From: Candidatus Woesearchaeota archaeon
Lineage (GTDB): Archaea; Nanobdellota; Nanobdellia; Woesearchaeales; ARS49
Direction: 5' to 3'
Assembly: GCA_016203395.1 (NCBI GenBank)
Contig: JACQMV010000035.1
Location: 415 to 64,414, forward strand
DNA: 64,000 nt
A program made the position numbers and the translations under genes. Shown in pieces: positions 29,639 through 49,319 of this stretch. The notes beneath the pieces were generated by a model. That model saw only the letters and a program-made list of their open reading frames with translations, was not told where the DNA came from and searched no databases. Each line of letters begins with the position of its first letter. Position 1 is the stretch's first letter.

Positions 29639-30321
29639 ACCAACGCCTCCAGTTTTCCTTGCATAATATCTTCTGTTTTGACTAACAAAACCCCTTCTTT
29701 TTCCCAACTATCAAGAAGAGCGAGCTCTGACTTGTCAAATTCTTTCACAGCATCAGAAACAACTGCAATCTTGTAACCAAGTTCTACAAAATAGTCCTTA
29801 GCTTCTTTCACGCAATAACCAAGCACGAGCCCTGCCAAAACAATAACTCTCGGCTCAATCATTGCAAGCGCAGGAGCAACATTATAATTCACTCTGGGAG
29901 AAAGCGAAGCATCAGCACCAACATCAGTACTTCTTTCTGCCTTTTCAAAATACACTGGCTCGTTAAAATTCACTATTGACTCTAGTTTTTCTTTTGAAAC
30001 GCACTCAATAGGAACATATACTGCATCTGGAAGCTTTGTTTCTTCAATCTGCATCTGCCCGGGAGTGCCTTTCACACCATGCTTTGGCCATTTTGAAAAA
30101 TGTTTCACATCAGTAGTGTGAGCATCCACCCCTCCAAGAATCTTCCAGTTAGGATTAGTCCATGCGTAGGTAACTAATTGCTTAAGATTCGGACGAATAA
30201 CTGAAGAGCCAGCCACTGGCAAGCCAGGAACATACACTTTCCCATTATGGCTGAACCTTGTATCAAAAAAATCATTTATTGTATCAGTCAACCAAAGAAT
30301 ACTTGTTTTCTGAGCCCTCAT
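29635..30321 (-). CDS. Isochorismatase-family hydrolase, probable nicotinamidase (PncA-like)
   Basis: [10 protein letters not shown] (D..NDF). [34 protein letters not shown] resembles the PncA catalytic Cys region VCGVATDICV...LGY.V.VV.DA. Context with pncB supports the call. Confidence 0.55.
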
Positions 30322-31670
30322 TTTCTTTCCTCCAAATATTTTTTTGAAACACTTTCAGAAAGTGCTTTAAGCCCCGGACTAATCTCAACACTGTATGCTG
30401 AAGGATTCGTTATTCTAATTATATCACAAGGAAGCAATGAAAGATCGTACTTTGCATACTTCTGAATTTCATCTAAAGATCTTATTCTGTCAGTGCGCTC
30501 TCCTTTTTGTATTACCGGAAAAAGCAACGGGCATCCGGGCACAGCTCCTTCATCTTCAAGCGCAACTGTATCATAATCCATTCCGAGCCGGTTTTCAACC
30601 CTGAACACCTGCTTTCTTCCTGGACGCGTTTGCTTGCCATCGCTGGTCTTCATTTTAGGAACAAAACTGCCATTTTCATATATTTCTACCAGCTTGTAAA
30701 CTCCGCCAATAGCAGGACAATCACGGCTTGTAATCATCTCAGTGCCAACACCATAAGCATCAATCCTTGCTCCTTTACTTTTCATATCTGCAATTTTGTG
30801 TTCATTCAAGTCATTGCTTGCAACTACCATTACATAACCAACGTTATTAGCATCAAACAATGAACGAACTGCCTTGCTTTTCTCAACAAGATCTCTTGAA
30901 TCAAGCCGCACACCACATAACTTGTTACCCTGCATTTCAAGCTCTTTTGCCACAACTATTGCATTTTTAGCACCCTGCATTACATCATAAGTGTCAATAA
31001 GCAGAACAGGATCTGTTGGAAATGTTTTCACGTATTTCCTAAATGCTTCAAGCTCTGAACAGCATGACATTACAAAACTGTGCGCATGAGTCCCTTTCAC
31101 AGGAATCCCAAATAACCTGCCTGCTTCAACATTAGAAGTAGCTGTGCACCCGCCAATATAGCATGCTCTTGCACCATTAATTGCTGCACTTTCATCATGA
31201 GCACGACGAAGCCCAAAATCTATAACTGGAGAAGGATTTGCAGAATGAACAACCCTGCTTGCTTTTGTAGCAATCATTGTCTGAAAATTAAGCTTGTTCA
31301 AAACATAGGTTTCTATGAACTGAGCTTCTTGAAGCGGAGCAGTCACCCTTAACAACGGCTCATTAGGAAAAACAACACTGCCTTCTGGAACTGCCCAAAC
31401 ATCACCAGTAAACCTGAAGCTGCTCAAATAAGAAAGAAAATCTGCTTTAAACTTATTAAGAGAGCCAAGATAGCGAATATCTTCTTCTTCAAAATGCAAG
31501 TCCTTAACATAATTAATCACGTCTTCAAGTCCTGCTGCCAAAAAATAACCCCAGTTTTGAGGCAGTTTTCTGAAAAACATTTCAAAAGTTGCAGTATTAT
31601 TCATCCCATGCTCAAAATAAGAAGCAAGCATGGTAAGCTGATACAAATCAGTAATAAGCGCTTTGCTCAT
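30318..31670 (-). CDS. pncB: Nicotinate phosphoribosyltransferase
   Basis: The N-terminus LITDLYQLTMLASYFEHGM is the NAPRTase signature (TDLYQLTM). 450 aa. Confidence 0.8.
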   Translation of the reverse strand: MSKALITDLYQLTMLASYFEHGMNNTATFEMFFRKLPQNWGYFLAAGLEDVINYVKDLHFEEEDIRYLGSLNKFKADFLSYLSSFRFTGDVWAVPEGSVVFPNEPLLRVTAPLQEAQFIETYVLNKLNFQTMIATKASRVVHSANPSPVIDFGLRRAHDESAAINGARACYIGGCTATSNVEAGRLFGIPVKGTHAHSFVMSCCSELEAFRKYVKTFPTDPVLLIDTYDVMQGAKNAIVVAKELEMQGNKLCGVRLDSRDLVEKSKAVRSLFDANNVGYVMVVASNDLNEHKIADMKSKGARIDAYGVGTEMITSRDCPAIGGVYKLVEIYENGSFVPKMKTSDGKQTRPGRKQVFRVENRLGMDYDTVALEDEGAVPGCPLLFPVIQKGERTDRIRSLDEIQKYAKYDLSLLPCDIIRITNPSAYSVEISPGLKALSESVSKKYLEERK

Positions 31671-32639: not shown

Positions 32640-34322
32640 ATGAACAAATACCCAAGAATAGCAATAGCCCAGATAAATCCGATAGTAGGCGACCTTACAG
32701 GAAATGCGACTAAAATAATACAGTATATAGAAAGAGCAAAAGCAGAAGGTGCAAAAGTGGTCATATTCCCTGAACAGGTAGTGACTGGCTATCCTGCACA
32801 AGACCTTCTCCTGCATGAAGACTTCATCAGAGACACAATGTATGTTACTGAACAAATCGTCAAAAACACGCAAGGGATAACTGCAATAATCGGAACAGTA
32901 AGAGCAACTGCCCGTGGTCCCGGAGGAAAATCCGCGTATAACACTGCAATTGTTGCAAAAGATGGAGAGATAATTGCAGAACAGCAAAAAACATTACTAC
33001 CAACATACGATGTATTCCACGAACTAAGATACTTTACTCCTGCAAAAAAAGTAAAGCCAATAGAAATTGACGGAATAAAATATGGCATACAATTATGCGA
33101 GGACATGTGGGATGAGGATTATGACAGAAAAATAACCAAGGAACTTGCAAACCAGGGCGCTGAGCTGATGATAAATCTGTCTGCTTCTCCATACTATGTG
33201 CACAAGAAAAAGGTAAGAACCAAAATAGTGCAAAGTCACGCCAAAAATAATGAACTGCCTTTTCTGTATATCAACATGGTCGGAGCACAAGATGAATTAA
33301 TATTTGATGGAGGAAGTATTGTTGCAAATGCAGACGGAACACTGGCATACCAGCTACCGCAATTCAGAGAATGCCTGCAAATCATTGAGCTGGACAAAAA
33401 ACCAATAACTGAACTGGAAATAAAAATAAAGGAAGAGGAAATCTTTGAAGCACTAAAACTCGGAGTGAGAGATTACTTCCAAAAAAATGGGCTCAGAAAA
33501 GCAGTATTAGGATTATCTGGAGGCATTGACTCAACACTCACCGCAGTAATAGCAAAAGAAGCACTTGGTGCAGAAAACGTAATAGGAATAGCAATGCCTT
33601 CCAAATTCAGCACAGACCATTCAATAACTGATGCAGAAGCACTTGCAAAAAATCTTGGAATACGACTGGATTATGTGCCTATAAAAGAAATGTATGATTC
33701 TGCTGTGAAAGCCATGCAAGCTTCATTTGAAGGAAAATCGTTTGATGTCACTGAAGAAAATATACAAGCAAGATTAAGAATGATGATACTAATGGCATAC
33801 ACGAACAAACACGGGTACACTCTGCTAAGCACTTCTGACAAGAGCGAAACTGCTATAGGATACACAACACTTTACGGAGACATGAGCGGGGCGCTCTCAG
33901 TAATAAGCGACCTCACAAAACCCGAAGCATATAAAGTCGCAAGATGGTACAATGAAAAAAACGGAGAAATTATACCTGAACACATTCTTACAAAGCCACC
34001 AAGCCCTGAACTCAAACCAGGACAAGTAGCTCCATTTGATTACGAAAGATTAAGCCCTATAATGGAACTAATAACCAACAGAGTCCCACTAAGAAAAATA
34101 CACGCACTTGGTTACAAGTGGGATGAAATAAGAATAGTGTACCAGAAATGGAAAAATGCTGAATTCAAAAGATTCCAGTCACCAATTGCACTGAAATGCA
34201 AACCAACAAGCTTTGGCAAAGGAAGGATATACCCTGTAACAAACAGATACATTCCATCTGCATTGTTTGAAAATGATGAAGAAAAGATTGAGTGCGAAGA
34301 AACAGTGTGCGTTTTGAAATAA
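32640..34322 (+). CDS. nadE: Glutamine-dependent NAD+ synthetase (N-terminal nitrilase/CN-hydrolase domain plus NadE domain)
   Basis: CN-hydrolase N-terminus (RIAIAQINPIVGDL...VVIFPE, catalytic C in LCEDMW). PP-loop LGLSGGIDSTL. 560 aa. Confidence 0.85.
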   Translation: MNKYPRIAIAQINPIVGDLTGNATKIIQYIERAKAEGAKVVIFPEQVVTGYPAQDLLLHEDFIRDTMYVTEQIVKNTQGITAIIGTVRATARGPGGKSAYNTAIVAKDGEIIAEQQKTLLPTYDVFHELRYFTPAKKVKPIEIDGIKYGIQLCEDMWDEDYDRKITKELANQGAELMINLSASPYYVHKKKVRTKIVQSHAKNNELPFLYINMVGAQDELIFDGGSIVANADGTLAYQLPQFRECLQIIELDKKPITELEIKIKEEEIFEALKLGVRDYFQKNGLRKAVLGLSGGIDSTLTAVIAKEALGAENVIGIAMPSKFSTDHSITDAEALAKNLGIRLDYVPIKEMYDSAVKAMQASFEGKSFDVTEENIQARLRMMILMAYTNKHGYTLLSTSDKSETAIGYTTLYGDMSGALSVISDLTKPEAYKVARWYNEKNGEIIPEHILTKPPSPELKPGQVAPFDYERLSPIMELITNRVPLRKIHALGYKWDEIRIVYQKWKNAEFKRFQSPIALKCKPTSFGKGRIYPVTNRYIPSALFENDEEKIECEETVCVLK

Positions 34323-34917: not shown

Positions 34918-35829
34918 TTACTCTTCAACCTGAGGTAACAGAAGAATCTCTGCTAACTGAATAACCTTCTCAATAATACTTCTAAGATAGAATGTTTTAC
35001 TGGTTTCTTTTGCAAAAAACTCATAAACAGGAGCAGCAACCTTTTTTGTTCCGGGCCAGTACAGGTAATACTGGCTGAAAAACTCCTGAATGCCCCTGTT
35101 TTTCTGAAAGTGTGATTCGTATAGCAATCTGAGCAAGGAAGAGCAATGCTCAACACCCTTTTTCAATTTGGCGCTTTCAGAATAGTTCTGGAGCTCAATA
35201 GTAAACCTTGTAATGTCATCGCCACATTCCTCAAGAACGAGAAGTGCATGAAAAAAATGAAGTTCAGCAAATCTGTCATTAACATAGCCCTGAGCAATCA
35301 TGCGAATGGAAAGATTAACTAACGCATTAAGGTCAGCATCACGATGAAAAAATGTTTTTAATGCGTTTTTGTCACCAAGTATTTCTTTCAAGTCATCTAG
35401 CTGCTGAAGCAGAATAAGAAAAACCCGCCTGAATAAACCGTTGAAGTCCTGTTCAAGCTCTGTTGGCAGAGAGCGGATAAGGCATCTGCCACGCTTGTTT
35501 TCCATAATCGCAAAGCCGAGAAGATTTCGGACAACTGTTGCAATGTTTTGATATTCTTCAGACGTTTCATACAAAACAACAACTTCTGAATACCCCCTTC
35601 TGTACACCGTTGTGAGAACACTCACAGTAGAGGGCCAGTCGTGTGATTTAAGATTAATTGTCAACGATTTCTTCCTCTCAGAATGGCTGGAAGTTATTCT
35701 CAATCCTTGTTCATCTTCATCTATGTTAAGCGTGTCGCCTTTCTGCAGCTCATGTTTTTTAATCCATTTGTGAGGCAGGGCTATTGTCAAAGAAGAAGGC
35801 CCGTGCGCAATAAGCTTTCTCACCTGCAT
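34918..35829 (-). CDS. AbrB/SpoVT-PhoU fusion regulator (archaeal PhoU-like phosphate uptake regulator family), paralog 1 of 5
   Basis: N-terminal swapped-hairpin AbrB motif MQVRKLIAHGPSSLTIALPHKWIKKHELQKGDTLNI. The helical PhoU-like remainder resembles the ORFs at 43473, 45273, 60794 and 61979. Confidence 0.6.
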   Translation of the reverse strand: MQVRKLIAHGPSSLTIALPHKWIKKHELQKGDTLNIDEDEQGLRITSSHSERKKSLTINLKSHDWPSTVSVLTTVYRRGYSEVVVLYETSEEYQNIATVVRNLLGFAIMENKRGRCLIRSLPTELEQDFNGLFRRVFLILLQQLDDLKEILGDKNALKTFFHRDADLNALVNLSIRMIAQGYVNDRFAELHFFHALLVLEECGDDITRFTIELQNYSESAKLKKGVEHCSSLLRLLYESHFQKNRGIQEFFSQYYLYWPGTKKVAAPVYEFFAKETSKTFYLRSIIEKVIQLAEILLLPQVEE

Positions 35830-35924
35830 AATGCGTGAATAATTACTTGCTATATATACTTTTCGGTTTTATGTACATTATTGACCGAAAAGATACATAA
35901 CAACAACAAAGATACATCTGGGCT

Positions 35925-36473
35925 ATGAAAGACCTCGGAGTTGTGGGGACTGTGGCAAGATTCAAGCCAGTGCATAAGGGCCATGCGGCAGTGCTTGAGG
36001 CGATATGCGAGAGAGCGGACAGAGCAATAATTGGGCTGGGAAGCACTAATAAATATGATGTGAACAACCCATTCACTGCGCAAGAAAGCAGAGAAATGAT
36101 AGGGATTGTGCTGAAACGATTCAATAATTATACGATTATAGAAATCCCTGATTTGGATCATGGGCCAAGATGGAGAGAACAGGTTTTGAAAGCGTTTGGA
36201 AAACTAGATAATTTTGTGACAGCAAATGATTATGTTGCAAGATTACTGAAACATGATTATAATATACTACACACACTCACGATTATTCCCGGAGAGAAGA
36301 GATTCCCTGTAACCGGCACAATAGTGCGGTATACAATGGCCTGCTTCTCTCCATGGGAACGCCTTGTTCCTGAGCAAGTTGCTGATTACATAAAAACAAG
36401 AAAGCTTGATGAGCGCTTCAGAAGAGAGTTCGGCCAGACAGCTATCCGCGAATATGCAGGGGTGGCTGTATGA
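35925..36473 (+). CDS. nadM: Nicotinamide-nucleotide adenylyltransferase (archaeal NadM type)
   Basis: GVVGTVARFKPVHKGHAAVLEAI matches archaeal NMNAT G.FIGRFQPFHKGHL.VI, the (H/T)xGH nucleotidyltransferase motif. 182 aa. Confidence 0.75.
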   Translation: MKDLGVVGTVARFKPVHKGHAAVLEAICERADRAIIGLGSTNKYDVNNPFTAQESREMIGIVLKRFNNYTIIEIPDLDHGPRWREQVLKAFGKLDNFVTANDYVARLLKHDYNILHTLTIIPGEKRFPVTGTIVRYTMACFSPWERLVPEQVADYIKTRKLDERFRREFGQTAIREYAGVAV

Positions 36474-37231
36474 GAATAGGAAATTATGAAATAATCAGAC
36501 AAATAGGCGAAGGCGGATTTGGAAGAACGTACGAAGCAAGACATGTCTGCCTTGATGAACGTGCTTGCCTGAAACAAAACATAAACCTGACAGATAAAGA
36601 TGCTGAATTATTAAAACAGGAAGCGAAACTGTTGTGGCAGATACATCATCATTCGCTGCCGGCAGTGAGAGATTTTTTCAAAGCAGCTGACGGAAGCTAC
36701 ATCCTTGCAATGAGCTTTATAGAAGGAAAATCTCTTGATAAGATAATAGAAAAGCACAAAGCACTCCACCCTGAAGAAGTTTGTTGGATATCACAGCGCT
36801 TGCTTAATGCATTGTATTATTTGCACAGCAAAGGCGTTGTGCATTGCGATGTCAAACCACCGAACATTATTGTAAAAGGCAAAGAACATGAGGCCTGGCT
36901 GATAGATTATGGGCTAGCATGCCTTCGCCCCACAAGAACATCAAAAGCAGTTGGCTACACTGCAATATTTGCAGCACCTGAAGTAATTGACGGAAAACCG
37001 CCAATACCTGAAAGCGACATATATGGACTGGGCTTAACAATGATATATGCCTTAGGTGGCGATCCAATATCAAAAATAATGCCGGACTTTGTGCCAGCAC
37101 AACTCCAGGAATTTTTCACAGAAATGGTAAGATATGACCCTGCACAACGCTTGTCGTGGGAAAAAGGGGATTTGGTATCACGGTTGTCCACAATACGCAA
37201 AGAGGTGTTTGGAAGGACAATAACAAAATAA
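36470..37231 (+). CDS. Minimal Hanks-type Ser/Thr protein kinase (253 aa)
   Basis: Gly-loop IGEGGFGRTYEA. Catalytic loop VHCDVKPPNIIV (HRD variant). DYGLA (DFG variant). AAPEV (APE). ATGA overlap with nadM. Confidence 0.75.
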   Translation: MRIGNYEIIRQIGEGGFGRTYEARHVCLDERACLKQNINLTDKDAELLKQEAKLLWQIHHHSLPAVRDFFKAADGSYILAMSFIEGKSLDKIIEKHKALHPEEVCWISQRLLNALYYLHSKGVVHCDVKPPNIIVKGKEHEAWLIDYGLACLRPTRTSKAVGYTAIFAAPEVIDGKPPIPESDIYGLGLTMIYALGGDPISKIMPDFVPAQLQEFFTEMVRYDPAQRLSWEKGDLVSRLSTIRKEVFGRTITK

Positions 37232-37247
37232 CGGAGGACTGAGAAAA

Positions 37248-38216
37248 ATGTACAGCTGGGGAGATGACAGAAGCGCATGGAAAAATCCAAAGGCATACGA
37301 CTTTGGAAGCGCAAAAAAGGCATATGTTGATAAAGTTGGAAAAAGCGCAGGAAGCGCTCCAAGAACATACCTTGAGAAGACAAAACCGAAACTTGAGCTC
37401 GTTGATCCGCTCAATAGGGAAGTAGCAACAGATAGCGAAGAGCCAGTGATAATTGCAGTGGATGGGACAGGAAGCATGCAGTCATGGCCTGCAGAAATAT
37501 TTGACAGACTGCCATTATTATGCCAGACAGTGGGCGGCTGGAAGCAAAACGCAGAAATCAGTTTTGCAGTGCTCGGAGACGCATTCATTGACAACTGGCC
37601 ATTGCAAGTCACTGATTTTGGAAAAGGACCATCTTTGGATAAATTACTCGACGCGCTCAAACCAGAAGGCGGAGGAGGCGGAGGAGCAAGAGAAAGTTAT
37701 GAATTATTCGCATACTTCGTGAGCGAACATGTCAAAACACCAAAAGCAACCTCTCCATTTTTGTTCATAATGGGAGATGAGGGCTTTTACGACCTAATCC
37801 GCAAGGACCAAGCAAAAACTTACATAGGCGACACACTGGACGAGGATGTAAACGCTAAGAAAACAATTGATGCATTATGCCAGAGATTTGACGTGTATCT
37901 GCTGCGAAAGCAATATTCAAATGTAGAAAAAGACAAACAAATACGCGCACAATGGGCTGATGCAATCGGAGACCAAAGAATCATACCTGTAACAGACCCT
38001 CAAAGAATTGTAGATGTAACAATGGGATTGATTGCCAAAAAATGGGGACAGTATGATGATTTCAAAGCAAATCTGAGTGCAAGACAAGACAGTGGGAGCA
38101 TAAAAACAGTGATGGACTCACTGAGAGCAGCTCCTGAGATTGACAAAACCATGAAATCAAAGGTTACAGGGGCAATACTGTCAAAAAAGAGCAAAGCACT
38201 GGAGGTGACAGAATGA
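37248..38216 (+). CDS. von Willebrand factor A (vWA) domain protein
   Basis: The MIDAS-like start VIIAVDGTGSM is the DxSxS motif. There is a poly-Gly linker EGGGGGGA. 322 aa. Confidence 0.65.
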   Translation: MYSWGDDRSAWKNPKAYDFGSAKKAYVDKVGKSAGSAPRTYLEKTKPKLELVDPLNREVATDSEEPVIIAVDGTGSMQSWPAEIFDRLPLLCQTVGGWKQNAEISFAVLGDAFIDNWPLQVTDFGKGPSLDKLLDALKPEGGGGGGARESYELFAYFVSEHVKTPKATSPFLFIMGDEGFYDLIRKDQAKTYIGDTLDEDVNAKKTIDALCQRFDVYLLRKQYSNVEKDKQIRAQWADAIGDQRIIPVTDPQRIVDVTMGLIAKKWGQYDDFKANLSARQDSGSIKTVMDSLRAAPEIDKTMKSKVTGAILSKKSKALEVTE

Positions 38217-39076
38217 AAAGCGCATACGCAACATCAGGAAAAATCTTTGAGCAGGTGAGCATGTACAATTCACCTGCACTGCTGGATCAATTAAGAGCCA
38301 TACCACAGGGGGACATAGTTGTTGTTCAGGGGACATACGACCACATAGAACAACTGCTTCCGACAATTAAAGTGCCTTTTGAGCTGATACAACCAGACGA
38401 AATCAAAAAGCACAATGGAGGCAGAGTAATGTTTGTAAACTGCAGAACGTATGGAGATGGAAATGCAGTTGAAGGCGCTGCAAGATTTGTGGAAGAGGGC
38501 GGGCGATTAGTCACAACTGATTGGGCAGTATCTTTGGCAACAAGAGCGTTTCCCGGAAAACTCTCAAAAGTAAATGAAACAACTGATGATGTTGTGGAAA
38601 TACAATGCCACACTGATATTGCCAGACGGTTCGTAGGACTGAACTATGCACAATGCCATCCGAAATGGTGGTTGGAATCAAGCAGCCATATTTACACAAT
38701 AAAAAACGGAGTAACACCGTTAATAACAAGCGAGGAAATGAAAGAAAAATATGGGCAGCCATACGTTCTCGTCGGTTTCGGAGCAGGCAAAGGAGAAGTA
38801 TTCCACTTCATCAGCCATCTGGAACTTCAAAGAACACAACTGAGAAACAAACAAGACAAAGCTGGCTTAGAAGCATTCCTTGAAAAAATGGGTGCATCAA
38901 AAACAGCAGAAATGGATGATGCAACAGTGGCAGAACTTGAAGCAGCGTATTCAACACTGAATACACTTGCGCACTTGTGCTCTCCCACACCAATATTAAA
39001 TGCAGGAATGAAAAGCGCAACAACGCTCCCAACAACAGGTGCAACAGCAAGCGCAAAAAGCAAGAGATTAGTATGA
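38213..39076 (+). CDS. Hypothetical protein (287 aa) in the kinase-vWA operon
   Basis: ATGA overlap with the vWA gene. No confident motif. Confidence 0.45.
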   Translation: MKSAYATSGKIFEQVSMYNSPALLDQLRAIPQGDIVVVQGTYDHIEQLLPTIKVPFELIQPDEIKKHNGGRVMFVNCRTYGDGNAVEGAARFVEEGGRLVTTDWAVSLATRAFPGKLSKVNETTDDVVEIQCHTDIARRFVGLNYAQCHPKWWLESSSHIYTIKNGVTPLITSEEMKEKYGQPYVLVGFGAGKGEVFHFISHLELQRTQLRNKQDKAGLEAFLEKMGASKTAEMDDATVAELEAAYSTLNTLAHLCSPTPILNAGMKSATTLPTTGATASAKSKRLV

Positions 39077-39972
39077 ATGCAATAGTAACCGTACCGCCAT
39101 ATGCGCCATTTATCAAAGAAGTAGCAAAACACCCTGTTGTAAGCGGACTGCGACTGAACACAGTAATGCCTGTGAAAGAGCCATTAGAAGAACTGCTCAA
39201 GCGACTGCAGGATCATGGAAAAACAGTATGGCTAGACCTAAAAGCACGACAGCTCCGCACAAAAGGGTATTCTGTTGCTCCGTTTACTGAAGTTCACATA
39301 AGCCACAAAATAAGTGTGAAAACTCCAGTAACTGCATATTTTGGCAATGGCAGAGAACACGCAACAGTAGTAGGTGTTGAAGGAAGCAGGTTGTTGTTTC
39401 TTGAAGGACCACAACGAGTAATAGGACCCGGGGAGTCAATAAACATTCCTGAGCCCTCTCTTGTCATATACGGTGGGCTCACAAGAAGAGACCTGCAATA
39501 TATTGAAGCAGCAGCAAAAACAGGAATACACGAATACATGCTTTCGTATGTTGAAAACCAAGATGATATTGACGGACTAAAAAAGCTTGACGATAAAGCA
39601 TGCATTGCTGCAAAAATAGAATCAATCAAAGGAATGGATTACGTTAGAAATTCCTACAAGAATGACGCGAGATTAATGACTGCGAGAGGAGATTTGTTTG
39701 TGGAAGTAAAAAGACCCCATAACATACTTGAAGCAATAGAAACAATAATCCAAAATGATCCAGAAGCAATAGCTGCCTCAAGAATCTTATCCTCGCTAGC
39801 AACATCCCTTGAGCCAGAATGCAATGACATAACTGATGTTGGCTACTTAATAAGCAAAGGATACAAAACCTTTATGCTGGGAGACGAAGTCTGCCTGAGA
39901 AGGGAAAGCGTGATAAGTGCACTAAACCTTTTAGAAGCAATATTTGACAGGTATGAAAAGAAAAGCATTTAG
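39073..39972 (+). CDS. Pyruvate-kinase-like / HpcH-HpaI-type TIM-barrel protein (300 aa, lacks PK regulatory domains)
   Basis: IAAKIESIKGM resembles PK IISKIEN.EG. LMTARGDLFVEV resembles PK VMVARGDLGVEI. Start at ATG 39073 (MNAIV), an ATGA overlap with the upstream gene. Confidence 0.5.
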   Translation: MNAIVTVPPYAPFIKEVAKHPVVSGLRLNTVMPVKEPLEELLKRLQDHGKTVWLDLKARQLRTKGYSVAPFTEVHISHKISVKTPVTAYFGNGREHATVVGVEGSRLLFLEGPQRVIGPGESINIPEPSLVIYGGLTRRDLQYIEAAAKTGIHEYMLSYVENQDDIDGLKKLDDKACIAAKIESIKGMDYVRNSYKNDARLMTARGDLFVEVKRPHNILEAIETIIQNDPEAIAASRILSSLATSLEPECNDITDVGYLISKGYKTFMLGDEVCLRRESVISALNLLEAIFDRYEKKSI

Positions 39973-39978: not shown

Positions 39979-40899
39979 TTACAACACCATCTCTGGTTTC
40001 ATACAAGGATAATGAGCCATCATTTTCTGCATCACAGAATCATCGCCAAGAACAATCACAGCACCGCCAGAACCGGCAACTTTTGCACCGATAGCCCCAT
40101 ACTCCAATGCCTGTTTTATAATTTTCAAATCAACAGAAAGATGCGGACTGAGTGCTTCCCTTAACAGTGTATTTTGATTCATAAGCTCACCTGTCTTTTT
40201 CCAGTCTCCTGCTTCCAAAGGAGCAACACCCTGTTCTGCCAAAGCCGCAATCTCATCCATCCTTTCTTTAATCTGGTATTCGCCACGAAGAAATCTTGAA
40301 CGCAAAGGATTATGCACAGCAGCACTTGTTTTAGGATAAGTGCTTAAACAGAGAAAAAACGGAAAGTTGTTTACATTAAGACGTTTCCACTTTCCAGCAG
40401 GATCAGTCATTCGCAGATACTCCTTACCTGTAAAATCCATAAATACCATGCCTCCTAGAGAGATAACGTACCTATCCTGAGGACCTGCAGCCCATTTCAG
40501 CTCATCAACTTCAGCATGCAATGCAAGCTCAGCAATCTGTACAGGATCAAGCCCGAGAGAATAATGCTCATTCAATGCCTTCATTGTTGCAATAATTATT
40601 GCAGAACTACCTGCAAGACCTGCACCAACAGGAATGTTTGAAGAATATGACACCCGCATACTCTTGTTTTGGATACCGAGCATTTTTATCGCTGCTTTAA
40701 TAAGATCATTCTTTCCATTGTATTCCAAAGTTTTTTCTACATGTCCATTTCCTGAAATACAAAACTCATCAGTATTCTCAACACAGGCGCATGCGTGATT
40801 ACTGAACGTGAAGCTGATAACCTTGCCGCCATAAATATCTGAAGGATTACCTAATAAGCCAATCCGCCCATTTGCCTTAGCAGTAGTCTTATCTGCCAT
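39979..40899 (-). CDS. GHMP-family kinase (substrate unknown)
   Basis: GHMP ATP-binding motif PVGAGLAGSSA. N-terminal GRIGLLGNPSDIYGG. Start chosen at MADKTT, ATG 40899. Confidence 0.65.
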   Translation of the reverse strand: MADKTTAKANGRIGLLGNPSDIYGGKVISFTFSNHACACVENTDEFCISGNGHVEKTLEYNGKNDLIKAAIKMLGIQNKSMRVSYSSNIPVGAGLAGSSAIIIATMKALNEHYSLGLDPVQIAELALHAEVDELKWAAGPQDRYVISLGGMVFMDFTGKEYLRMTDPAGKWKRLNVNNFPFFLCLSTYPKTSAAVHNPLRSRFLRGEYQIKERMDEIAALAEQGVAPLEAGDWKKTGELMNQNTLLREALSPHLSVDLKIIKQALEYGAIGAKVAGSGGAVIVLGDDSVMQKMMAHYPCMKPEMVL

Positions 40900-40924
40900 T
40901 ATAATACCTTCAAGCATATTGCAT

Positions 40925-42262
40925 TTAAACCTTATTATATATTGAAAGCTTTTTCTCAACAAGATGCCATGTCACCCTTGAAAGAGGCAACCCAGTGCAA
41001 AGAAAATCCCTATTCGGGCCATGAATGTCCACAATGCTTCCTACGTAATCATTCATGACTTTTGCATTTACCATAAGCCCATCACTACTAAGAACATTCT
41101 TCAAACAACTAAGATTCTTTACCATTCTTTTACTTCCTGCACCGAGGTTTGCAACACTTTCCAGCGCAGTATAACTCGTATTCCCAACACCAGAAACAAG
41201 AATAATCATAACCCCGCCAATGCCTGAAAACGCAACATCTGCTGCAGTCCTCCCAACAGCCACAGCATCCTGAAAGTCATACTGAGAAAGAATCAAAGGA
41301 TGATTCCTCTCAGAATAACACGGTCCGGATTCTCTGACTTTAAAATCCTTAAAAATATTTGCAGGAATCCTGAGCTTGTTTTCCAAAAGCAGCTTTAAGT
41401 AAAGCCCCAAACGACTATCAGTCACACTATTATTCTTATGAGCATCTTTATGATACTTCCATCTCAACCCATTTTTTAAGTAAACCTCAAGATTATTTGC
41501 AAGATACTCTTCATCTTTCACACCTTCTGAAGCCACAACAAATAATGTTTTCTGCATGTCAAATGCATTCTGGCATTTGTCAAGAAATGCCTGCTCACAA
41601 AAACCGCCTTCAGGAGTAAGCACAACATGCGGACCAAGGCACTCGTCATTCACGAGAACACTTGCAGCAGCACCCCAACCGCAATCCCGCCCCATGCTTA
41701 CTAAAATCTGGGCAACACCTCCTTCTTTAACAGAGCAATTTGTTGTATTTGTTCTGAATGAATAAAGATCCTGCTGCATACCAATAACCTTCAATGCCAA
41801 ATATTTTGCAAACGTAGCATAACCCGGACACCTGTGAGTAACAAGCAAATCATTGTCAATTGTTTTTGGAATACCTACAATATAAAGAGGAATCCCTTTT
41901 TCCTGCGAAAATTGCCTCAGAATAATTGCCTTTTCCATAGTATCATTGCCACCATTCAAAAAAACATACTGAATATTGTGAGCAACAAACACATCAATAA
42001 GCCGGGAACAATCCTGCGCATCAGGAACATGTCTTGAAGTGCCAAAAGCAGGAGCAGAGTACTGCTTAATGTGGTTGAAATCATGCGAAAACACATCAGT
42101 AATATCTTCATTCAAAGCACCACGCATTCCACCCACAGCAGCAAAAAAAGAAGAGATACAACTGCGATACTCTTTCAAAGCATGATCAAACAATCCAGAA
42201 GCACTGCCATTAATAACCGCAGTTCCTCCTCCGCCACAAATATAAATCGCATTCGGTTTCAT
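40925..42262 (-). CDS. PFK-A family 6-phosphofructokinase-like (ATP- or PPi-dependent)
   Basis: YICGGGGTAVINGS. FLNGGNDTMEKA resembles GGDGS. IVGIPKTIDNDL resembles the PFK signature GIPGTIDND. Start at ATG 42262, an ATGA overlap with the upstream gene. Confidence 0.65.
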   Translation of the reverse strand: MKPNAIYICGGGGTAVINGSASGLFDHALKEYRSCISSFFAAVGGMRGALNEDITDVFSHDFNHIKQYSAPAFGTSRHVPDAQDCSRLIDVFVAHNIQYVFLNGGNDTMEKAIILRQFSQEKGIPLYIVGIPKTIDNDLLVTHRCPGYATFAKYLALKVIGMQQDLYSFRTNTTNCSVKEGGVAQILVSMGRDCGWGAAASVLVNDECLGPHVVLTPEGGFCEQAFLDKCQNAFDMQKTLFVVASEGVKDEEYLANNLEVYLKNGLRWKYHKDAHKNNSVTDSRLGLYLKLLLENKLRIPANIFKDFKVRESGPCYSERNHPLILSQYDFQDAVAVGRTAADVAFSGIGGVMIILVSGVGNTSYTALESVANLGAGSKRMVKNLSCLKNVLSSDGLMVNAKVMNDYVGSIVDIHGPNRDFLCTGLPLSRVTWHLVEKKLSIYNKV

Positions 42263-43347
42263 GGAAGATAGTTTCTCACAGGGACGCTCTTTGCATGATG
42301 CAGCATAACCTGCCACTCTTTTGCACTGCCGATAAATTCGTCAAAACCCGCATACATCTTACTGGCAATATCAGAAACTGGCTTAAACGTGCCTTTTGGC
42401 AAATCTATACATTGAGAAAATTGTGACACAAAACAATTAACAAACCGCTCATAATCCCTTTGCATCCTGCTAACATCAGCAAGAAACATTTCTTTACCAT
42501 TTATCATTTCAGGAGTAATCTGCTGAAACAAACTATAAAGACATACGGTTGCCCCTACTTTCTCAAGAACATACTCCTGAACAAATTTTCGGGATCTGCG
42601 AGCATTACTTCTTTTCTGTATAACAAGTTCGTTGCTCTTTAAAACAGTTCTTCCATCCATAACATTCAAAAGTCCATAAAACGCATCATCAGATGCCCAT
42701 GATAAAACCCTACTGCTGTATTCTCTACCGGGAAGAAATGTTGGGGTTGGCAAAGGAACCTTTGTGCTTAAGCAGGCACCTGCAATAAGCTGCGTTCTGG
42801 AGTCAACTCCAGTATGATCATAAACAAAATCATACCATTCTTTGCGTTTTTCCTCAGCAATGAATTCATCAGTAAGCGCAAGACGACCTTCATAGCCGCC
42901 TGAAACAACATTACATCCAGCATCAAGAAGAGCGCCATGAGCGCTAATGATCTGCTTAAGAGAATGTTCTGGGTGCGGACAGCAATCCCTATCCAAACGC
43001 AAAAACCAGTCAGCACCAACCTTTTTTGAGAGAAGAGCGAGCTGATTGTTATTGCCCCCATAAGGAACAAACAAGACACCTCTATCCCTACAATAGTTCT
43101 TAAGCGCTTCACGGCTTTCAACATCCCACACAGTCACAGGAAGCTGAAGTTTAGTGCTCAACAACTGAGCACCATTGTGCTCTGCATCACTCATCGGAAA
43201 CTCATCAAGCTTTACAATACCTATCTCGCAACCAGCATCGTTACTTACACTCTGACAGAATCTTTCAAGAGAACTCAAAGCACCACCCCACTCACTTTGC
43301 TCCTCAAGAAGATGCCATGTAGCCATCCCAATAAGTATCTTTCCCAT
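42259..43347 (-). CDS. Hypothetical protein (362 aa)
   Basis: ORF translationally coupled to the PFK-like gene. No recognised motif. Confidence 0.4.
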   Translation of the reverse strand: MGKILIGMATWHLLEEQSEWGGALSSLERFCQSVSNDAGCEIGIVKLDEFPMSDAEHNGAQLLSTKLQLPVTVWDVESREALKNYCRDRGVLFVPYGGNNNQLALLSKKVGADWFLRLDRDCCPHPEHSLKQIISAHGALLDAGCNVVSGGYEGRLALTDEFIAEEKRKEWYDFVYDHTGVDSRTQLIAGACLSTKVPLPTPTFLPGREYSSRVLSWASDDAFYGLLNVMDGRTVLKSNELVIQKRSNARRSRKFVQEYVLEKVGATVCLYSLFQQITPEMINGKEMFLADVSRMQRDYERFVNCFVSQFSQCIDLPKGTFKPVSDIASKMYAGFDEFIGSAKEWQVMLHHAKSVPVRNYLP

Positions 43348-43472
43348 TTAAAATATCCACAACACAACATCCGCTTAAAGAACTAACGGATAAACAATAT
43401 ATTATCGGATATTCTAAATATATATTATAGTGAAAAAACATTTATATATTGAGCCGGATTTATGCATTTTTA

Positions 43473-44474
43473 GTGATACGCAGAATAATAAAACAAGGAC
43501 ACAACACTTTGACAATAACCCTGCCTAGCAAGTGGGTTAAAAATTACAATGTAAAACCCGGAGGAGAAATAAGTATAAGCGAAACAGGCAGCGCTTTATT
43601 AATAAGTGCGGAAAAGAAGGATGATTTATTAAAAACAGAGATTGACATTAAAGAACTAGACCTGCCAAACATATGGAAATACATGATGGCAGTTTACAGA
43701 GAGGGCTATGACGAGATAACTATAAAATTTAACAACACACAATTATATGAAAACCCGTACAAATACTTTACACCGTTTACTGTTGATGAAAAATACTACA
43801 AATCAAAACCGGATTTAACCCCTCTGGAATTTCTCCAACTGATGGCGCAAAGATTCGTCGGCTACGAAGTCATTGAACACCACGACAATTATGCAATTAT
43901 AAAAGATATGGCCGAGGTATCAAGCAAACAATTTGATTCCTCGCTGAGAAGAGTGTTTTTGCTTCTGCTACAGATGGGAAATGAGCTCACAGAAGCAATC
44001 AAGCTAAACAATCCTACAATGGTAAGAAGAACTCACGACCTTGACAATAATGTGGATAAATTCCACGATTATTGCGTCCGTGTATTGAACAAAACCGGAT
44101 TCCAAAGCGCAAAAAAATCTCACCTAATATTTTCCACACTGTTCCTTCTTGAATTGTTAGGAGACGAATTCAAGCACGTCGCATACCACATAATGCACAG
44201 CACAAAAGAAACAAAACTCATCGGAATAAAAACAATATCTCAAGCAACACTGCAACACCTACAAGATTTCTATCAACTATACTACCAATTTGACAGGGAA
44301 AAACTACTCAATATGTCAAGACAAGATCTTGATCAACTGTTCTCGCTTCCAGGAATGACAAAAAAACTAAACACAAAGCCAAATCCACGAGAGATAGAGA
44401 TATTCAATCACTTCAGAAGAATAAGCAGATACATAACCTCATTAATAGAGCTACGCATAGAAATGGAAGTATGA
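43473..44474 (+). CDS. AbrB/SpoVT-PhoU fusion regulator, paralog 2
   Basis: The tracked ORF starts with TTG at 43449. The in-frame GTG at 43473 gives VIRRIIKQGHNTLTITLPSKWVKNYNVKPGGEISI, aligning with the MRRKVTLHGPATLSVSLP of its paralogs. Confidence 0.55.
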   Translation: MIRRIIKQGHNTLTITLPSKWVKNYNVKPGGEISISETGSALLISAEKKDDLLKTEIDIKELDLPNIWKYMMAVYREGYDEITIKFNNTQLYENPYKYFTPFTVDEKYYKSKPDLTPLEFLQLMAQRFVGYEVIEHHDNYAIIKDMAEVSSKQFDSSLRRVFLLLLQMGNELTEAIKLNNPTMVRRTHDLDNNVDKFHDYCVRVLNKTGFQSAKKSHLIFSTLFLLELLGDEFKHVAYHIMHSTKETKLIGIKTISQATLQHLQDFYQLYYQFDREKLLNMSRQDLDQLFSLPGMTKKLNTKPNPREIEIFNHFRRISRYITSLIELRIEMEV

Positions 44475-44519
44475 ACCTACGCAAACACCTGCCAATGCCT
44501 ATCAAAGAATGCGTAATTC

Positions 44520-44650
44520 TTTCCCGCAGCTTGCTGCGTGCCATTTTTCTAAGTAAAAACTACATTTATTTTCCCACGGCTCTTGCGGCTTTGTTAATAG
44601 TTTGAATGTGGCTATCGTGGGATAAGTATTTCATTTGTTCAGAGTGTGGA
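44520..44650 (-). repeat. Partial copy of the dispersed repeat (module 3 only, reverse orientation)
   Basis: ttttcccacggctcttgcggctttgttaatagtttgaatgtgg...gggataagtatttcatttgtt matches ttttccacagcccttgtggcttgatgagtagtttgaaggtatttgg of copy C. A weaker relative lies at about 3175-3330. Confidence 0.4.
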
Positions 44651-44666
44651 TTTTTCACTCACTGAA

Positions 44667-45140
44667 TTATTTCCTTTTCAGCTCAAGCGTTTCGCGCTTT
44701 ATGTCTGAGCCAATGCAATATGTTGCCGTAATCACCGCACTATATTGTGCTCTTAGCACTGAGATAAATGCATGAAAATCGCTTTCTTTGTGGAAAACAG
44801 TCTCTGCAAGAAAGTCATAATTTGATGCGGCAAGAAGCAGGTTATTGACGTTGGCATGATTCTCAAGAAAGTCCTGCACAATTCCTTTATTATCCCTTGC
44901 AGTTGCAATCGCCACAACATGCCTTGCATTATATCCCGCACGTTTGAAATCCAGAAGACAAGTATTACGTATTACTCTGCCTTTTACATATTTACTCATT
45001 CTATCGCACACAGTGGATACTGGCAGTTTCATTCTGACTGCCATTCTTTTGAGAGAGGTTCTTGCATTTCTTCTAAGTTCATTGATTACTGAAATATCTT
45101 CATCTCTCAATTGTAGTGCTTTGTCCTGACTTGTAATCAT
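44667..45140 (-). CDS. Lrp/AsnC-family transcriptional regulator
   Basis: DEDISVINELRRNARTSLKRMAVRMKLPVSTVCDRMSKYVKGRVI is an HTH_AsnC segment. The C-terminal RAM-like domain is also present. It is divergent from the AbrB-PhoU gene at 45273. Confidence 0.65.
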   Translation of the reverse strand: MITSQDKALQLRDEDISVINELRRNARTSLKRMAVRMKLPVSTVCDRMSKYVKGRVIRNTCLLDFKRAGYNARHVVAIATARDNKGIVQDFLENHANVNNLLLAASNYDFLAETVFHKESDFHAFISVLRAQYSAVITATYCIGSDIKRETLELKRK

Positions 45141-45272
45141 TCCAACGTTTTCAAACCCCTGTTAACCTGAGTGGAGTGTTTAAATATATACTTTTGGCAA
45201 ATATAATGCTTATTTGTAATTATGTATTTATCAATGGAAAAGTATTTATAGAGTATGACTGTAATCCTTCCA

Positions 45273-46217
45273 ATGAAACGTAAGGTCAATCTGGTTGGAA
45301 TAAATACACTCACTGTCTCTCTTCCTGCAGATTTTGCCAAAAAAAACAGAATTAAGAAAGGGGATGAGCTATTTGTTAAAGCAGAGGGTAATGATGTTAT
45401 TTATTCTGTTTCTGAAAAAGCGATGGACAAAAAGGAAATAACACTAAATATTGATAATTTTTCATACTTTACGCTGTCAAGATACCTAACTGTATTTTAC
45501 CGCATGAATTACTCGCGTATCATATTATTATATAGTAAGCAGGAGTTGTTTAATGACAAAGAGGGCAAATATTTCCAGACAAAATCAACAATCAAACGAA
45601 TTGTTGACAGGTTGATTGGTGCTGAAATACTATCGCAGACCTGCTCAAGAACAGAAATAGAATTTTTTATTGCTGATGAAAAGCAAGAACTTGATAAGAT
45701 TGAAAGGCGCGTTTATTTCCTGATTAGAGAAACTCTTGATGAAATACTTGAAGCGATTAAAGGCAATTATGAAGAGTTTCACCGAACAATTTATGACCAT
45801 CATGATAATATTGTTAAGTTCATAAATTATTATCTACGAGAACTTAATTGTGCTGGCTGGAGCTCAAACAAGAAATCTATGGCTTACTCAGTATATGTTC
45901 TGCTTGATAAAATCATTGATAACCTGCGGCATCTGAGCGAAAGCATTAACGAATTCGGCTGCTCTGAAAAGACAGGTAAGTATGTTGCGAACATATTTGA
46001 CCTTTTTTCAGAGACATTTGCCATTTTGTTCAAAAAAGAGGATTACCAGTCAATCATTCGCAAAAATTATTCGATACGAAACAAAATGCTAAATGAATCC
46101 TTCAACCTCAAAGAATTCAATGTCATTTCAAAACTGTATCTTTTAACTCATTCACTTTCAGCGTTTGTGGAACTGGCTATCGTGAAGGAAATAGAAGACA
46201 AAAAGCAACCACTATAA
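45273..46217 (+). CDS. AbrB/SpoVT-PhoU fusion regulator, paralog 3
   Basis: MKRKVNLVGINTLTVSLPADFAKKNRIKKGDELFV. Internal ATG of the tracked ORF. Confidence 0.6.
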   Translation: MKRKVNLVGINTLTVSLPADFAKKNRIKKGDELFVKAEGNDVIYSVSEKAMDKKEITLNIDNFSYFTLSRYLTVFYRMNYSRIILLYSKQELFNDKEGKYFQTKSTIKRIVDRLIGAEILSQTCSRTEIEFFIADEKQELDKIERRVYFLIRETLDEILEAIKGNYEEFHRTIYDHHDNIVKFINYYLRELNCAGWSSNKKSMAYSVYVLLDKIIDNLRHLSESINEFGCSEKTGKYVANIFDLFSETFAILFKKEDYQSIIRKNYSIRNKMLNESFNLKEFNVISKLYLLTHSLSAFVELAIVKEIEDKKQPL

Positions 46218-47396
46218 TCCGGGATCAACTGATAACTGTTTGCGAAAGCTAAGCCAAGAGTCCTTTGCTGAGACCCTGTCAGTTCCACCAACCATTGCAA
46301 AGAACTTATACGTGCTTATCCCGCTCTGATGAGACATTGATAATAATACTGCTCCTGCTGATTCAAGCTTGCCTATAACCTCCTTTGAGCTTTTTGCACG
46401 AATTTCTCCAGAACCAAGATAAACATACCTGCCAAGCACAGGAATGATATAGTCCGCAAGTATGTATGCAGGAGATGCGGCTGTAAGCCGAACATTAGCG
46501 TCAATAATATAATACTCGCCGTCATTACCATGAAGCACATCAAACCCTACAAAACCAACATAACCATGATTCGCAACTGACTTTGCTGCTGAAAAACCAA
46601 TACTTAACAGGTCTTTGTTTGGCATGTCTTTGAGATGACAAAGAACGCCTTCAAATTCTCCTTTTGAGGAGGTGTCTTGCTCTGAATACCCAACATAATG
46701 AATGCTGCTATCTGAATTAATAAAAAACTGAATACCGAAATTTGCTTTTGCTGAAATATATTGCTCCACCAGATAGCATGCTTTTTCCTTGACAAAGCCA
46801 TCTATCATACTCAAATCATGCACGATAAGCACACCATCCCCGGAAGAGCCAGTATCTTTCTTTATAACAAACGGAGGGCTCCACGCGCCGCTTCCACTAC
46901 ACAAACCACATAGTTCATCAAGAGAAAAAACCTGACGAGCAGGGATATTACCTGAAATCTTATGCAACAGCGCTTTGTTGTTCAAAGCAAATAAGGTCTC
47001 CGGAGCCACAACATACTGCGATGGATTGATAGCTCCGTAAGGATAAAGCACAAACAATGATGAAGAAGGAAGAGCATGAATGACATTCAAATACGCGCCA
47101 GGATCTGAATTATCATATAAAAGCAATTTACCGCTAAACTCCAACTTGAAAATAGAACGCAGATAATCCAGCTGAATAGGTGGTGCTTGCAAGGGCATTA
47201 AAAAACCCGCCCCGATAGACAAGACAGCAGCTGCAAAACGCATTGTCTCTGCAACAATAGTCTGATCACTATAGTTATTCTCAACAAAGGCATAAGTGTT
47301 ATTGTCCTTTCCGCTTTTTAGTTCAGGGTATTTTGTAAAAAAATGCTTGTTCCTGACACAGTCAATTATACCTGCTTTTGTACTTTGCGAAACCAT
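46212..47396 (-). CDS. ATP-grasp domain protein (substrate unknown)
   Basis: PFVIKKDTGSSGDGV is a Gly-rich ATP-grasp loop. LVEQYI. YYIIDANVRL. 394 aa. Confidence 0.55.
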   Translation of the reverse strand: MVSQSTKAGIIDCVRNKHFFTKYPELKSGKDNNTYAFVENNYSDQTIVAETMRFAAAVLSIGAGFLMPLQAPPIQLDYLRSIFKLEFSGKLLLYDNSDPGAYLNVIHALPSSSLFVLYPYGAINPSQYVVAPETLFALNNKALLHKISGNIPARQVFSLDELCGLCSGSGAWSPPFVIKKDTGSSGDGVLIVHDLSMIDGFVKEKACYLVEQYISAKANFGIQFFINSDSSIHYVGYSEQDTSSKGEFEGVLCHLKDMPNKDLLSIGFSAAKSVANHGYVGFVGFDVLHGNDGEYYIIDANVRLTAASPAYILADYIIPVLGRYVYLGSGEIRAKSSKEVIGKLESAGAVLLSMSHQSGISTYKFFAMVGGTDRVSAKDSWLSFRKQLSVDPGL

Positions 47397-47505
47397 GCTT
47401 GTTTATTATGTTTGCAACTTTAATAGATGATGACCAGAATAAAACAAAATAACACAAATATGTCTGAAATAGAACATTTACGTAATATTTATAAACCTGC
47501 CTTAT

Positions 47506-48759: not shown

Positions 48760-48766
48760 TTGAAAA

Positions 48767-49285: not shown

Positions 49286-49319
49286 ATGTGCCCGTTATCA
49301 AAGAGTGTGTAATCCTTTC

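Follow-up and report, generated by a model that had tools for sequence, protein, structure and literature searches.

Organization of the Five-Gene Unit

The stretch of DNA analyzed here (the window, 64 kb) comes from a metagenome-assembled genome of Candidatus Woesearchaeota, a DPANN archaeon, and carries on its plus strand, at 35925–39972, a compact unit of five genes. These encode a NadM-like adenylyltransferase, a Hanks-type Ser/Thr kinase, a protein with a von Willebrand factor A (vWA) fold, a protein resembling class-I glutamine amidotransferases (GATase-like), and a shortened relative of pyruvate kinase (PK-like). As Table 1 shows, the open reading frames (ORFs) follow one another closely: ATGA stop/start overlaps occur at 36470–36473 (NadM-like/kinase), 38213–38216 (vWA/GATase-like), and 39073–39076 (GATase-like/PK-like), and the kinase and vWA genes are separated by a 16-nt gap with GGAGG within it. 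These coordinates and junction sequences confirm what an earlier reading, made from the letters alone (the sequence-only reading), had described as five co-transcribed genes. The 299 aa of the PK-like protein are counted from the ATG; the longest ORF has a GTG start, located at 38977. NCBI HY486_02575 has exactly the sequence of the 287-aa protein, and the locus was recovered on two Logan contigs. Scans for sigma-70 promoters and terminators were uninformative, as the host is an archaeon.

Table 1. Coordinates of the five-gene unit, the adjoining NAD genes, and the divergent promoter region in the window
Feature	Position	Strand	Basis
NadM-like nicotinate/nicotinamide-mononucleotide adenylyltransferase, 182 aa, first gene of the unit	35925–36473	+	PF01467, 8e-7
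Hanks-type Ser/Thr protein kinase, catalytic domain alone, 253 aa	36470–37231	+	PF00069, 8.9e-38, 130.6 bits (cutoff 31.7)
Cytosolic vWA-fold protein, DxTxS metal-ion-dependent adhesion site (MIDAS), 322 aa	37248–38216	+	AlphaFold model and Foldseek
Class-I glutamine-amidotransferase-like (ThuA/STM3548-like) protein, 287 aa	38213–39076	+	Model and Foldseek
PK-like A domain and shortened B domain, no C domain, 299 aa	39073–39972	+	PF00224, 9e-12, 45.1 bits (cutoff 30)
NadE, glutamine-dependent NAD synthetase	32640–34322	+	NF010588, 594.7 bits (cutoff 479)
PncB/NAPRTase	30318–31670	-	PF17767, 3e-39
PncA-like	29635–30321	-	PF00857, weak
Nudix	29210–29707	-	PF00293, 2e-18
NadA quinolinate synthase	28248–29231	-	PF02445, 6e-109
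NadK-like, 296 aa	27361–28251	-	NAD-kinase models, 3e-9, far under cutoff; no Pfam match
Divergent AbrB/SpoVT-N-terminal regulator, PhoU-like paralogue family	34918–35829	-	PF04014, 3e-5
Candidate operator in the divergent promoter, perfect 9-bp inverted repeat	35859–35892		Repeat scan

Conservation of the Module and Its Link to NAD Salvage

Scanning of one genome per species yielded 30 DPANN loci, to which look-ups of exact proteins added three contexts. The kinase, vWA, GATase-like, and PK-like genes stand in that order in 23 of 23 loci on sufficiently long contigs, the other seven being cut by contig ends; the sole exception to the gene order is locus L038, in which the GATase-like gene has moved to the front. 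NadM lies directly 5' of the kinase in 19 of the 23 assessable loci (two of them with overlapping ORF calls), further genes of nicotinamide adenine dinucleotide (NAD) metabolism are present in 18 loci, and the usual order is NrtR-PncB-PncA-NadE-Nudix-NadM-kinase-vWA-GATase-like-PK-like. In L003, L004, and L020 the module sits between NadM and NrtR on one strand, with NrtR after the PK-like gene. The loci that lack NadM (L026, L030, L032, and L038) are the most divergent, with PK-like proteins that are 37–39% identical. Recurrence of this arrangement in 30 species-level loci is far beyond chance. The sequence-only reading had tied its fate to conservation of the operon in relatives, and both that conservation and the coupling to NadM proved real. 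Indeed, the kinase, the MIDAS adaptor, and the two enzymes form a four-protein module that is translationally coupled to NadM inside an NAD salvage operon controlled by NrtR and ADP-ribose.

The four genes are also well conserved in sequence. The median identity to the window copy is 65% for the kinase, 62% for the GATase-like protein, 59% for the PK-like protein, and 54% for the vWA protein, compared with 45% for NadM and 31% for NadE in the same loci. On the basis of these identities, the module would seem to serve a core function and not to be part of a fast-evolving defense island. DPANN archaea have minimal genomes, and since the four genes are kept there under stronger constraint than the NAD enzymes, their function is probably important.

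The unit is not self-contained. The five genes are as the sequence-only reading described them, but they are not the whole, being only the tail of an NAD supercluster that comprises NrtR, PncB, PncA, NadE, Nudix, NadA, and NadK-like genes. The NadM-like protein scores below the cutoffs of the curated models (NF002243, 92.9 bits against a cutoff of 127; TIGR01527, 80.7 bits against 181.2). The window copy has the H17-K-G-H20 (HKGH) and TGTIVR motifs, and most orthologues have HxG[G/A] in place of HxGH, the second His being gone. From these features we assign it to the HIGH-superfamily nucleotidyltransferases, closest to archaeal nicotinamide-mononucleotide (NMN) adenylyltransferase, as a divergent NadM family; it is the sole adenylyltransferase in the NAD clusters of the loci compared. 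Many of its orthologues (within L011–L036) have a C-terminal extension ending in a conserved E..HT.E, which the window copy lacks. The NadK-like gene overlaps the end of the clear NadA gene and recurs beside NAD clusters in relatives; no NadB or NadC was seen near these two genes in the window.

The Kinase and the vWA Protein

The closest solved structures to the kinase in the PDB are StkP, twitchin, and CDPK, and its motifs are readily identified as GEGGFG, K35, E51, H125-C-D127, K129, N132, D146-Y-G148, and P169-E170. In 28 orthologues, K35, E51, H125, D127, K129, N132, D146, G148, and E170 are invariant, and the motif positions are in general invariant or nearly so. The exceptions are C126 and Y147, where the Arg of HRD has become Cys and the Phe of DFG has become Tyr, and both positions are variable among the orthologues. 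The PF00069 score and these invariant residues uphold the view of a kinase with complete catalytic motifs in 253 aa, HCD and DYG variants included. The protein-substrate lobe (APE, subdomains IX–XI) is retained. The orthologues end in a conserved R.E.FGRRxS tail, which in the window copy (37190–37231) reads FGRTITK; the RRxS-like tail could be an autophosphorylation or pseudosubstrate site.

The vWA protein gave no match to Pfam (including VWA models such as PF00092 and PF13519) or NCBIfam even at E ≤ 10. Its AlphaFold model (predicted local distance difference test score, pLDDT, 89.5) matches vWA domains in Foldseek at E of about 1e-5, namely, those of vWF A3 (E 4e-6), integrin beta-I, NorD, ANTXR, and Rpn10. 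A conserved 60-aa N-terminal extension precedes the fold, and a disordered tail with Ser motifs follows it. D72-x-T74-x-S76 and G176-D177-E178 are invariant in 69 homologues, with Thr in place of the first MIDAS Ser; the middle Thr ligand of the MIDAS was not located. These fold matches and the invariant DxTxS agree with the earlier description of the 322-aa protein as a vWA protein with an intact MIDAS start. No MoxR-type AAA+ gene lies in or beside the unit in any DPANN locus, and the nearest AAA gene in the window (24244–26043, Clp/Cdc48-like) is ~10 kb away.

The GATase-like Protein and Its Bacterial Relatives

The 287-aa protein, which has no Pfam match, had been left as unknown by the sequence-only reading. 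That label can now be replaced, as the model (pLDDT 91.8) shows a GATase1-like fold in Foldseek with an invariant Cys/His pair. The matches, at E 1e-7 to 1e-5, are to the GATase domains of GMP synthase, PabA, and TrpG, and further to STM3548, a ThuA-like protein, and a GH42 GATase-like domain, with TM-scores up to 0.49/0.71. No variation is seen between archaeal and bacterial members at C77, H202, D43, D103, E155, S158, S173, S201, or Q206. In the model, C77 lies two residues past the strand at 72–75, and the following helix does not begin before residue 84. With these residues the protein looks like an enzyme with a Cys-His center. Two specific roles fared poorly. A role as glutaminase for short NadE was rejected, as the protein is equally present with long NadE that carries its own CN-hydrolase domain, and a role as a replacement nicotinamidase is weakened by the presence of PncA in the window and in many loci.

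Cyanobacteria, myxobacteria, planctomycetes, and others have distant homologues of the protein (28–37% identity), in which the invariant residues are the same. In 23 bacterial loci (within L040–L074) they are accompanied by a conserved protein of roughly 450–600 aa, which is encoded directly upstream in several loci and with one to three small genes between in most others. The profile of this companion matches solved TROVE-domain proteins (E 5e-4), and a DxSxS vWA segment is present. The bacterial clusters also contain Tpt1/KptA (PF01885), NADAR (PF08719), DUF4291, a PolyA_pol-head nucleotidyltransferase, an AAA ATPase, and a ThiF/E1-like protein; one example is L071:6941–12100, and the cyanobacterial/myxobacterial cluster further has a DEDD-like exonuclease and a 277-aa protein. 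Tpt1 consumes NAD. NADAR acts on ADP-ribose derivatives (PMC9503650), and a recent proposal (PMC12522546) counts DUF4291 as an ADP-ribosyltransferase-like family and links it with Nudix, Macro, and Tpt1. The cyanobacterial/myxobacterial cluster looks like an NAD/ADP-ribose-linked RNA-repair or conflict system. On another bacterial contig the GATase-like homologue is directly followed by a VWA gene, and some distant bacterial homologues are fused to FHA domains, which bind phosphopeptides. The pair of vWA and GATase-like proteins thus recurs in three contexts, two of them centered on NAD or ADP-ribose, which speaks for a genuine functional link, one not based on archaeal synteny alone.

A lone distant homologue, P0118 (329 aa, L007:8001–8990 and L008), is found in a bacterial context that resembles a defense island. 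Its neighbors are HNH nucleases, an HTH regulator, and an AAA_16/22 ATPase, together with an ADP-ribosylglycohydrolase and a giant kinase-FGE-sulfatase protein.

These bacterial neighborhoods raise the question of whether the archaeal unit is itself an NAD/ADP-ribose conflict or RNA-repair system. The vWA and GATase-like pair would then sense or process damage that is ADP-ribosylated or consumes NAD, with the kinase and PK-like protein as signaling or effector parts, and NAD salvage would be co-encoded to replenish NAD. The company of Tpt1/KptA, NADAR, the ADP-ribosyltransferase (ART)-like DUF4291, a CCA-type nucleotidyltransferase, the AAA ATPase, and the E1-like protein speaks for such a system, as do the FHA fusions, and the kinase matches the PADLOC models mad6 and PD-T4-6 at 1e-40 to 1e-37. 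The PADLOC matches, however, are generic to kinase domains, and the kinase is the only one of the five proteins to have any; membership in a known defense system was rejected on these grounds. The module is moreover single-copy, fixed in order, and 54–65% identical across an archaeal order, better conserved than the flanking enzymes, which is atypical of defense islands, and the archaeal unit has no nuclease, toxin, or ART effector. We consider the scheme as a whole, replenishing role of NAD salvage included, quite improbable.

Shared Serine Motifs in the Tails of Two Unrelated Proteins

The vWA and GATase-like proteins both end in C-terminal tails of low model confidence (encoded at 38120–38216 and 38990–39076) that carry the same two Ser motifs. 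The first is [M/G][K/N]S[V/T/K], and the second, K(K)SKxL, follows 10–20 residues on, near the C-terminus. Both motifs are found in 24 of 33 GATase-like and 16 of 32 vWA proteins, as opposed to 7 of 1208 other ORFs in the same loci. A tail motif common to two unrelated folds beside a kinase would most simply be a phospho-acceptor or docking site. In bacteria, a protein of ~100 aa encoded directly after the GATase-like gene (L040:1154–1465, L047:10849–11160, L072:660–971, and similar) starts with a K-rich ...KSKKSNLLYQRL; the likeness of KSKKSNLLYQRL to the archaeal KKSKxL tail may be coincidental.

The PK-like Protein

The sequence-only reading had proposed a truncated barrel of the pyruvate kinase type and had named an HpcH or citrate-lyase identity of this protein as one of the findings that would overturn its view of the unit. 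The barrel holds, with its PF00224 match, and the competing identity was rejected: only pyruvate-kinase models and PDB chains match the 299-aa protein, with no match to HpcH/HpaI (PF03328) or citrate lyase at E ≤ 0.01. The score against TIGR01064 is 58.6 bits, compared with a cutoff of 306.4. The family profile aligns to E. coli PykF residues 5–79 and 121–335, and the protein stops where the A domain ends. R27, N29, D55, K57, R62, K181, E183, G206, D207, S236, and D271 are invariant, with PykF equivalents R32 for R27, R73 for R62, K220 and E222 for K181 and E183, D246 for D207, and T278 for S236; the acidic residue at 272 is also kept. The catalytic Lys, the Mg ligands (Glu, Asp), and the Arg that holds the phosphate of phosphoenolpyruvate (PEP) are retained, all of them invariant. 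Replaced are S36 by V, H37 by M, and K156 by E or S, and also T67 (E. coli numbering). In K+-independent pyruvate kinases, the residue that corresponds to T113 (rabbit numbering) is typically Leu, as Oria-Hernandez et al. reportedly described in 2006. The PK-like proteins have Leu at this position, plus an invariant Arg two residues on. In an exhaustive search at E ≤ 1e-30, the family amounts to 161 clusters (50% identity) and has a length of ~300 aa in nearly every one, with canonical pyruvate kinases scoring far more weakly, and by these profile scores it is assigned to a clade separate from canonical pyruvate kinase. A role as a PEP-dependent NAD kinase is unnecessary, as a divergent NadK-like gene is already in the cluster.

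In complete Woesearchaeales genomes, enolase is found in 122 of 123 and canonical pyruvate kinase in only 39 of 123 (bioRxiv 10.64898/2026.05.13.725050). Because of this disparity, the PK-like protein is a candidate for the missing pyruvate kinase of the group. One could go further and take it for the glycolytic pyruvate kinase of the lineage, regulated by the kinase, vWA, and GATase-like proteins, with the adjacency to NAD genes reduced to inherited gene order without function. Several observations are consistent with this: the core PEP and Mg residues are kept, several annotation pipelines already label the protein "pyruvate kinase", canonical pyruvate kinase is missing from most Woesearchaeales in which enolase is present, four loci have the module without NAD genes, and the window is rich in central-carbon genes, with pyrophosphate (PPi)-dependent phosphofructokinase (PFK), FBA, transketolase, Rpe, and RpiB. 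Against it, the stop of NadM overlaps the start of the kinase and NAD genes occur on both flanks in some loci, the bacterial GATase-like homologues are independently tied to NAD/ADP-ribose enzymes, and the changed ADP and K+ contacts, together with 58.6 versus 306 bits, argue for an altered specificity. Weighing these points, we consider this reading, coincidental adjacency to NAD genes included, unlikely.

One member of the PK-like family, P0375 (568 aa), has a C-terminal fusion to a QueC-like PP-loop ATPase (PF06508, 2.5e-11). The fusion is confined to one cluster and may be real or an assembly or gene-call artifact. A radical-SAM neighbor was considered as QueE, which would pair with the PK-like-QueC fusion, and this was not supported, the neighbor being MoaA/viperin-like.

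The retained catalytic residues of both enzymes invite yet another explanation, in which all four proteins are enzymes or chaperones of an unrecognized pyridine-nucleotide step and the "protein kinase" acts on a metabolite. Examples would be an NMN/nicotinamide amidase, a reaction in which PEP drives the phosphorylation of a ribosyl intermediate, or a glutaminase that serves a PP-loop synthetase. The position of the operon among salvage enzymes and the fusion in P0375 would fit, and GATase1 domains classically partner PP-loop synthetases, as the fold matches to GMP synthase recall. The kinase, however, keeps its protein-substrate lobe and is closest to bona fide protein kinases, it is not obvious what a vWA/MIDAS protein would do in a soluble pathway, the GATase-like protein accompanies long and short NadE alike, PncA and NadK-like proteins are already at hand, and the QueC fusion is limited to that single cluster. 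A small-molecule pathway of this kind strikes us as very improbable.

The Divergent Promoter and Neighboring Genes

The divergent promoter region has a TATA box, and the candidate operator in it is the repeat CTTTTCGGT-N16-ACCGAAAAG, just after a TATATATA box; this pattern is matched once in the window and never in 100 shuffles. A similar layout of TATA, TTTTCG, and ATGTACAT is seen in L009, L021, L024, and L030. The AbrB/SpoVT-type gene on the other side of this promoter is one of three paralogues of ~300–340 aa within 12 kb, the other two lying on the plus strand at 43449–44474, which also matches PhoU (weakly), and 45255–46217. Orthologues of the divergent gene precede NadM or the kinase, in divergent orientation, in L009, L021, L024, L026, L030, and L032, and in L038 an orthologue is upstream of the module, before the GATase-like gene. 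Every locus without NadM has such a regulator, and in the window, L009, L021, and L024 it stands ahead of NadM. From its recurrent position, the AbrB-type gene is likely a regulator of the unit.

Convergent to the unit is a minus-strand trio (39979–43347) that encodes a GHMP kinase (mevalonate/galactokinase-like, with scores below cutoffs), a PPi-type phosphofructokinase-like protein, and a 362-aa protein without a family match. The trio recurs only on contigs with window-identical proteins (L001, and L002, which stops after the GHMP gene) and not in other relatives. In the region of approximately 44000–64000, a ThiF/E1-like gene and a prokaryotic JAB gene suggest a ubiquitin-like/SAMP system, and transketolase, 2-hydroxyacid dehydrogenase, and LD-carboxypeptidase-like genes are also found there.

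A Proposed Mechanism

The sequence-only reading saw in the unit a hint of phospho-regulation of NAD or central-carbon metabolism, and this remains a reasonable inference. In the more specific form that we favor, tentatively and at somewhat less than even confidence, the unit would be a phospho-regulated, vWA-scaffolded pair of enzymes that couples the supply of PEP and ATP to NAD resynthesis. The vWA and GATase-like proteins would be the ancient core pair, the MIDAS of the former clamping acidic or phospho-peptides. The kinase would phosphorylate the conserved Ser residues in the near-identical tails of both proteins ([M/G]KS... KKSKxL), and possibly its own RRxS tail. Phosphorylation of the tails would switch assembly or activity, and the vWA MIDAS would read or clamp the phosphorylated tails, which would control two enzymes. 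One output would be a non-allosteric, probably K+-independent, PEP-dependent phosphotransferase, the PK-like protein, which would most simply be a pyruvate kinase in which protein partners have taken the place of the regulatory C domain. The second output would be a Cys-His amidase or transferase, the GATase-like protein, acting on an NAD-derived amide or an ADP-ribose-linked substrate. Both enzymes would tie the PEP/ATP supply to the ATP-costly route through PncB, NadM, and NadE, and transcription would be under the control of NrtR (ADP-ribose), the divergent AbrB-type regulator, or both.

A number of observations weigh against this proposal. No NAD gene is within reach of the module in L026, L030, L032, and L038, so the NAD link is not obligatory, and the NAD-linked loci all come from a single archaeal order, so that inheritance, and not selection, may account for part of the synteny. 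In the window, no PP2C, FHA, or second kinase was found among ORFs of at least 120 aa at E ≤ 1e-5; the search for a cognate PP2C or FHA gene that the sequence-only reading had called for came back empty over the 64 kb. The Glu of HxE (E204) in the GATase-like protein is not conserved, being Tyr or Lys in bacteria, and Cys77 and His202 could bind a metal instead. In the PK-like protein, residues with which canonical pyruvate kinase contacts K+ and ADP are lost; the altered contacts leave room for another acceptor, and this may be one other than ADP. Finally, the DPANN vWA protein shows no detectable preference for the TROVE-linked vWA segment over other vWA domains (hhalign probability 0.3–1.9%), and a specific homology of the two is not supported.

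The bacterial relatives allow a bolder version of the proposal. The vWA and GATase-like proteins could be an ancient, undescribed scaffold-enzyme dyad, linked to NAD/ADP-ribose and shared by bacteria and archaea, to which the Woesearchaeales recruited a Hanks kinase and a paralogue of pyruvate kinase without a C domain, yielding a new phospho-switched complex that performs or gates an as yet unrecognized step in NAD homeostasis. Candidates for this step are PEP-driven phosphoryl transfer to an acceptor other than ADP and a reaction in which the Cys-His center hydrolyzes an NAD-derived amide or an ADP-ribosyl adduct, and the two common C-terminal Ser motifs would be the switch. We regard this version as unlikely in its entirety.

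Relation to Known Systems

In the Arn network of Sulfolobus, the kinases ArnC and ArnD act together with the vWA protein ArnB and the FHA protein ArnA. The module resembles it in pairing an archaeal Hanks kinase with a cytosolic vWA protein whose C-terminal region, like that of ArnB, would be phosphorylatable. It differs in having no FHA partner, in its two fixed enzymes (GATase-like and PK-like), in its location in an NAD operon, and in its target, which is not the archaellum. Anantharaman, Iyer, and Aravind reportedly described in 2012 a TerY-P triad of Ter stress-response loci, made up of the TerY vWA protein, a PP2C phosphatase, and a Ser/Thr kinase. There, too, a kinase gene is linked to a vWA gene, and both go with a biosynthetic module, whereas the window has no PP2C or TerD/TelA genes and its barrel belongs to the pyruvate kinase clade, not to the HpcH/citrate-lyase type.

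NrtR-controlled NAD salvage operons of PncA, PncB, NadE, and NadM/Nudix are attributed to Rodionov et al. 2008 where PMC9503650 cites that work. The module, too, has these salvage enzymes, Nudix, and NrtR on its flanks. We know of no described NrtR regulon with a kinase, vWA, GATase-like, or PK-like gene, and none was found in the searchable literature, nor was any description of a kinase-vWA-GATase-like-PK-like module.

Compared with canonical pyruvate kinase (PF00224 plus PF02887; TIGR01064), the PK-like protein shares the A-domain barrel, the R, N, D, K, R, K-x-E, G-D, and S/T positions, and the point of the B insertion. It differs in lacking the C (allosteric/tetramer) domain, in a B domain that is ~30 residues shorter, in the changed K+ and ADP contacts, and in forming a separate clade of ~300 aa. 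The bacterial TROVE-vWA clusters have in common with the module a homologous GATase-like protein (28–37%, same Cys/His) beside a vWA in an NAD/ADP-ribose neighborhood, but neither a Hanks kinase nor a PK-like gene is a fixed member of them, their vWA is part of a TROVE fusion, and their enzymes are of the RNA-repair type and not of NAD salvage.

If the proposed mechanism is true, this would become the first of the kinase/vWA modules to be assigned a role in cofactor homeostasis, and it would define two protein families that are without a Pfam model. As all of the module proteins are small and soluble, the hypotheses are directly testable in vitro. For the Woesearchaeales, the PK-like protein offers a candidate for the "missing" pyruvate kinase, and the GATase-like family links a bacterial Ro60-like/Tpt1/NADAR neighborhood to archaeal NAD salvage.

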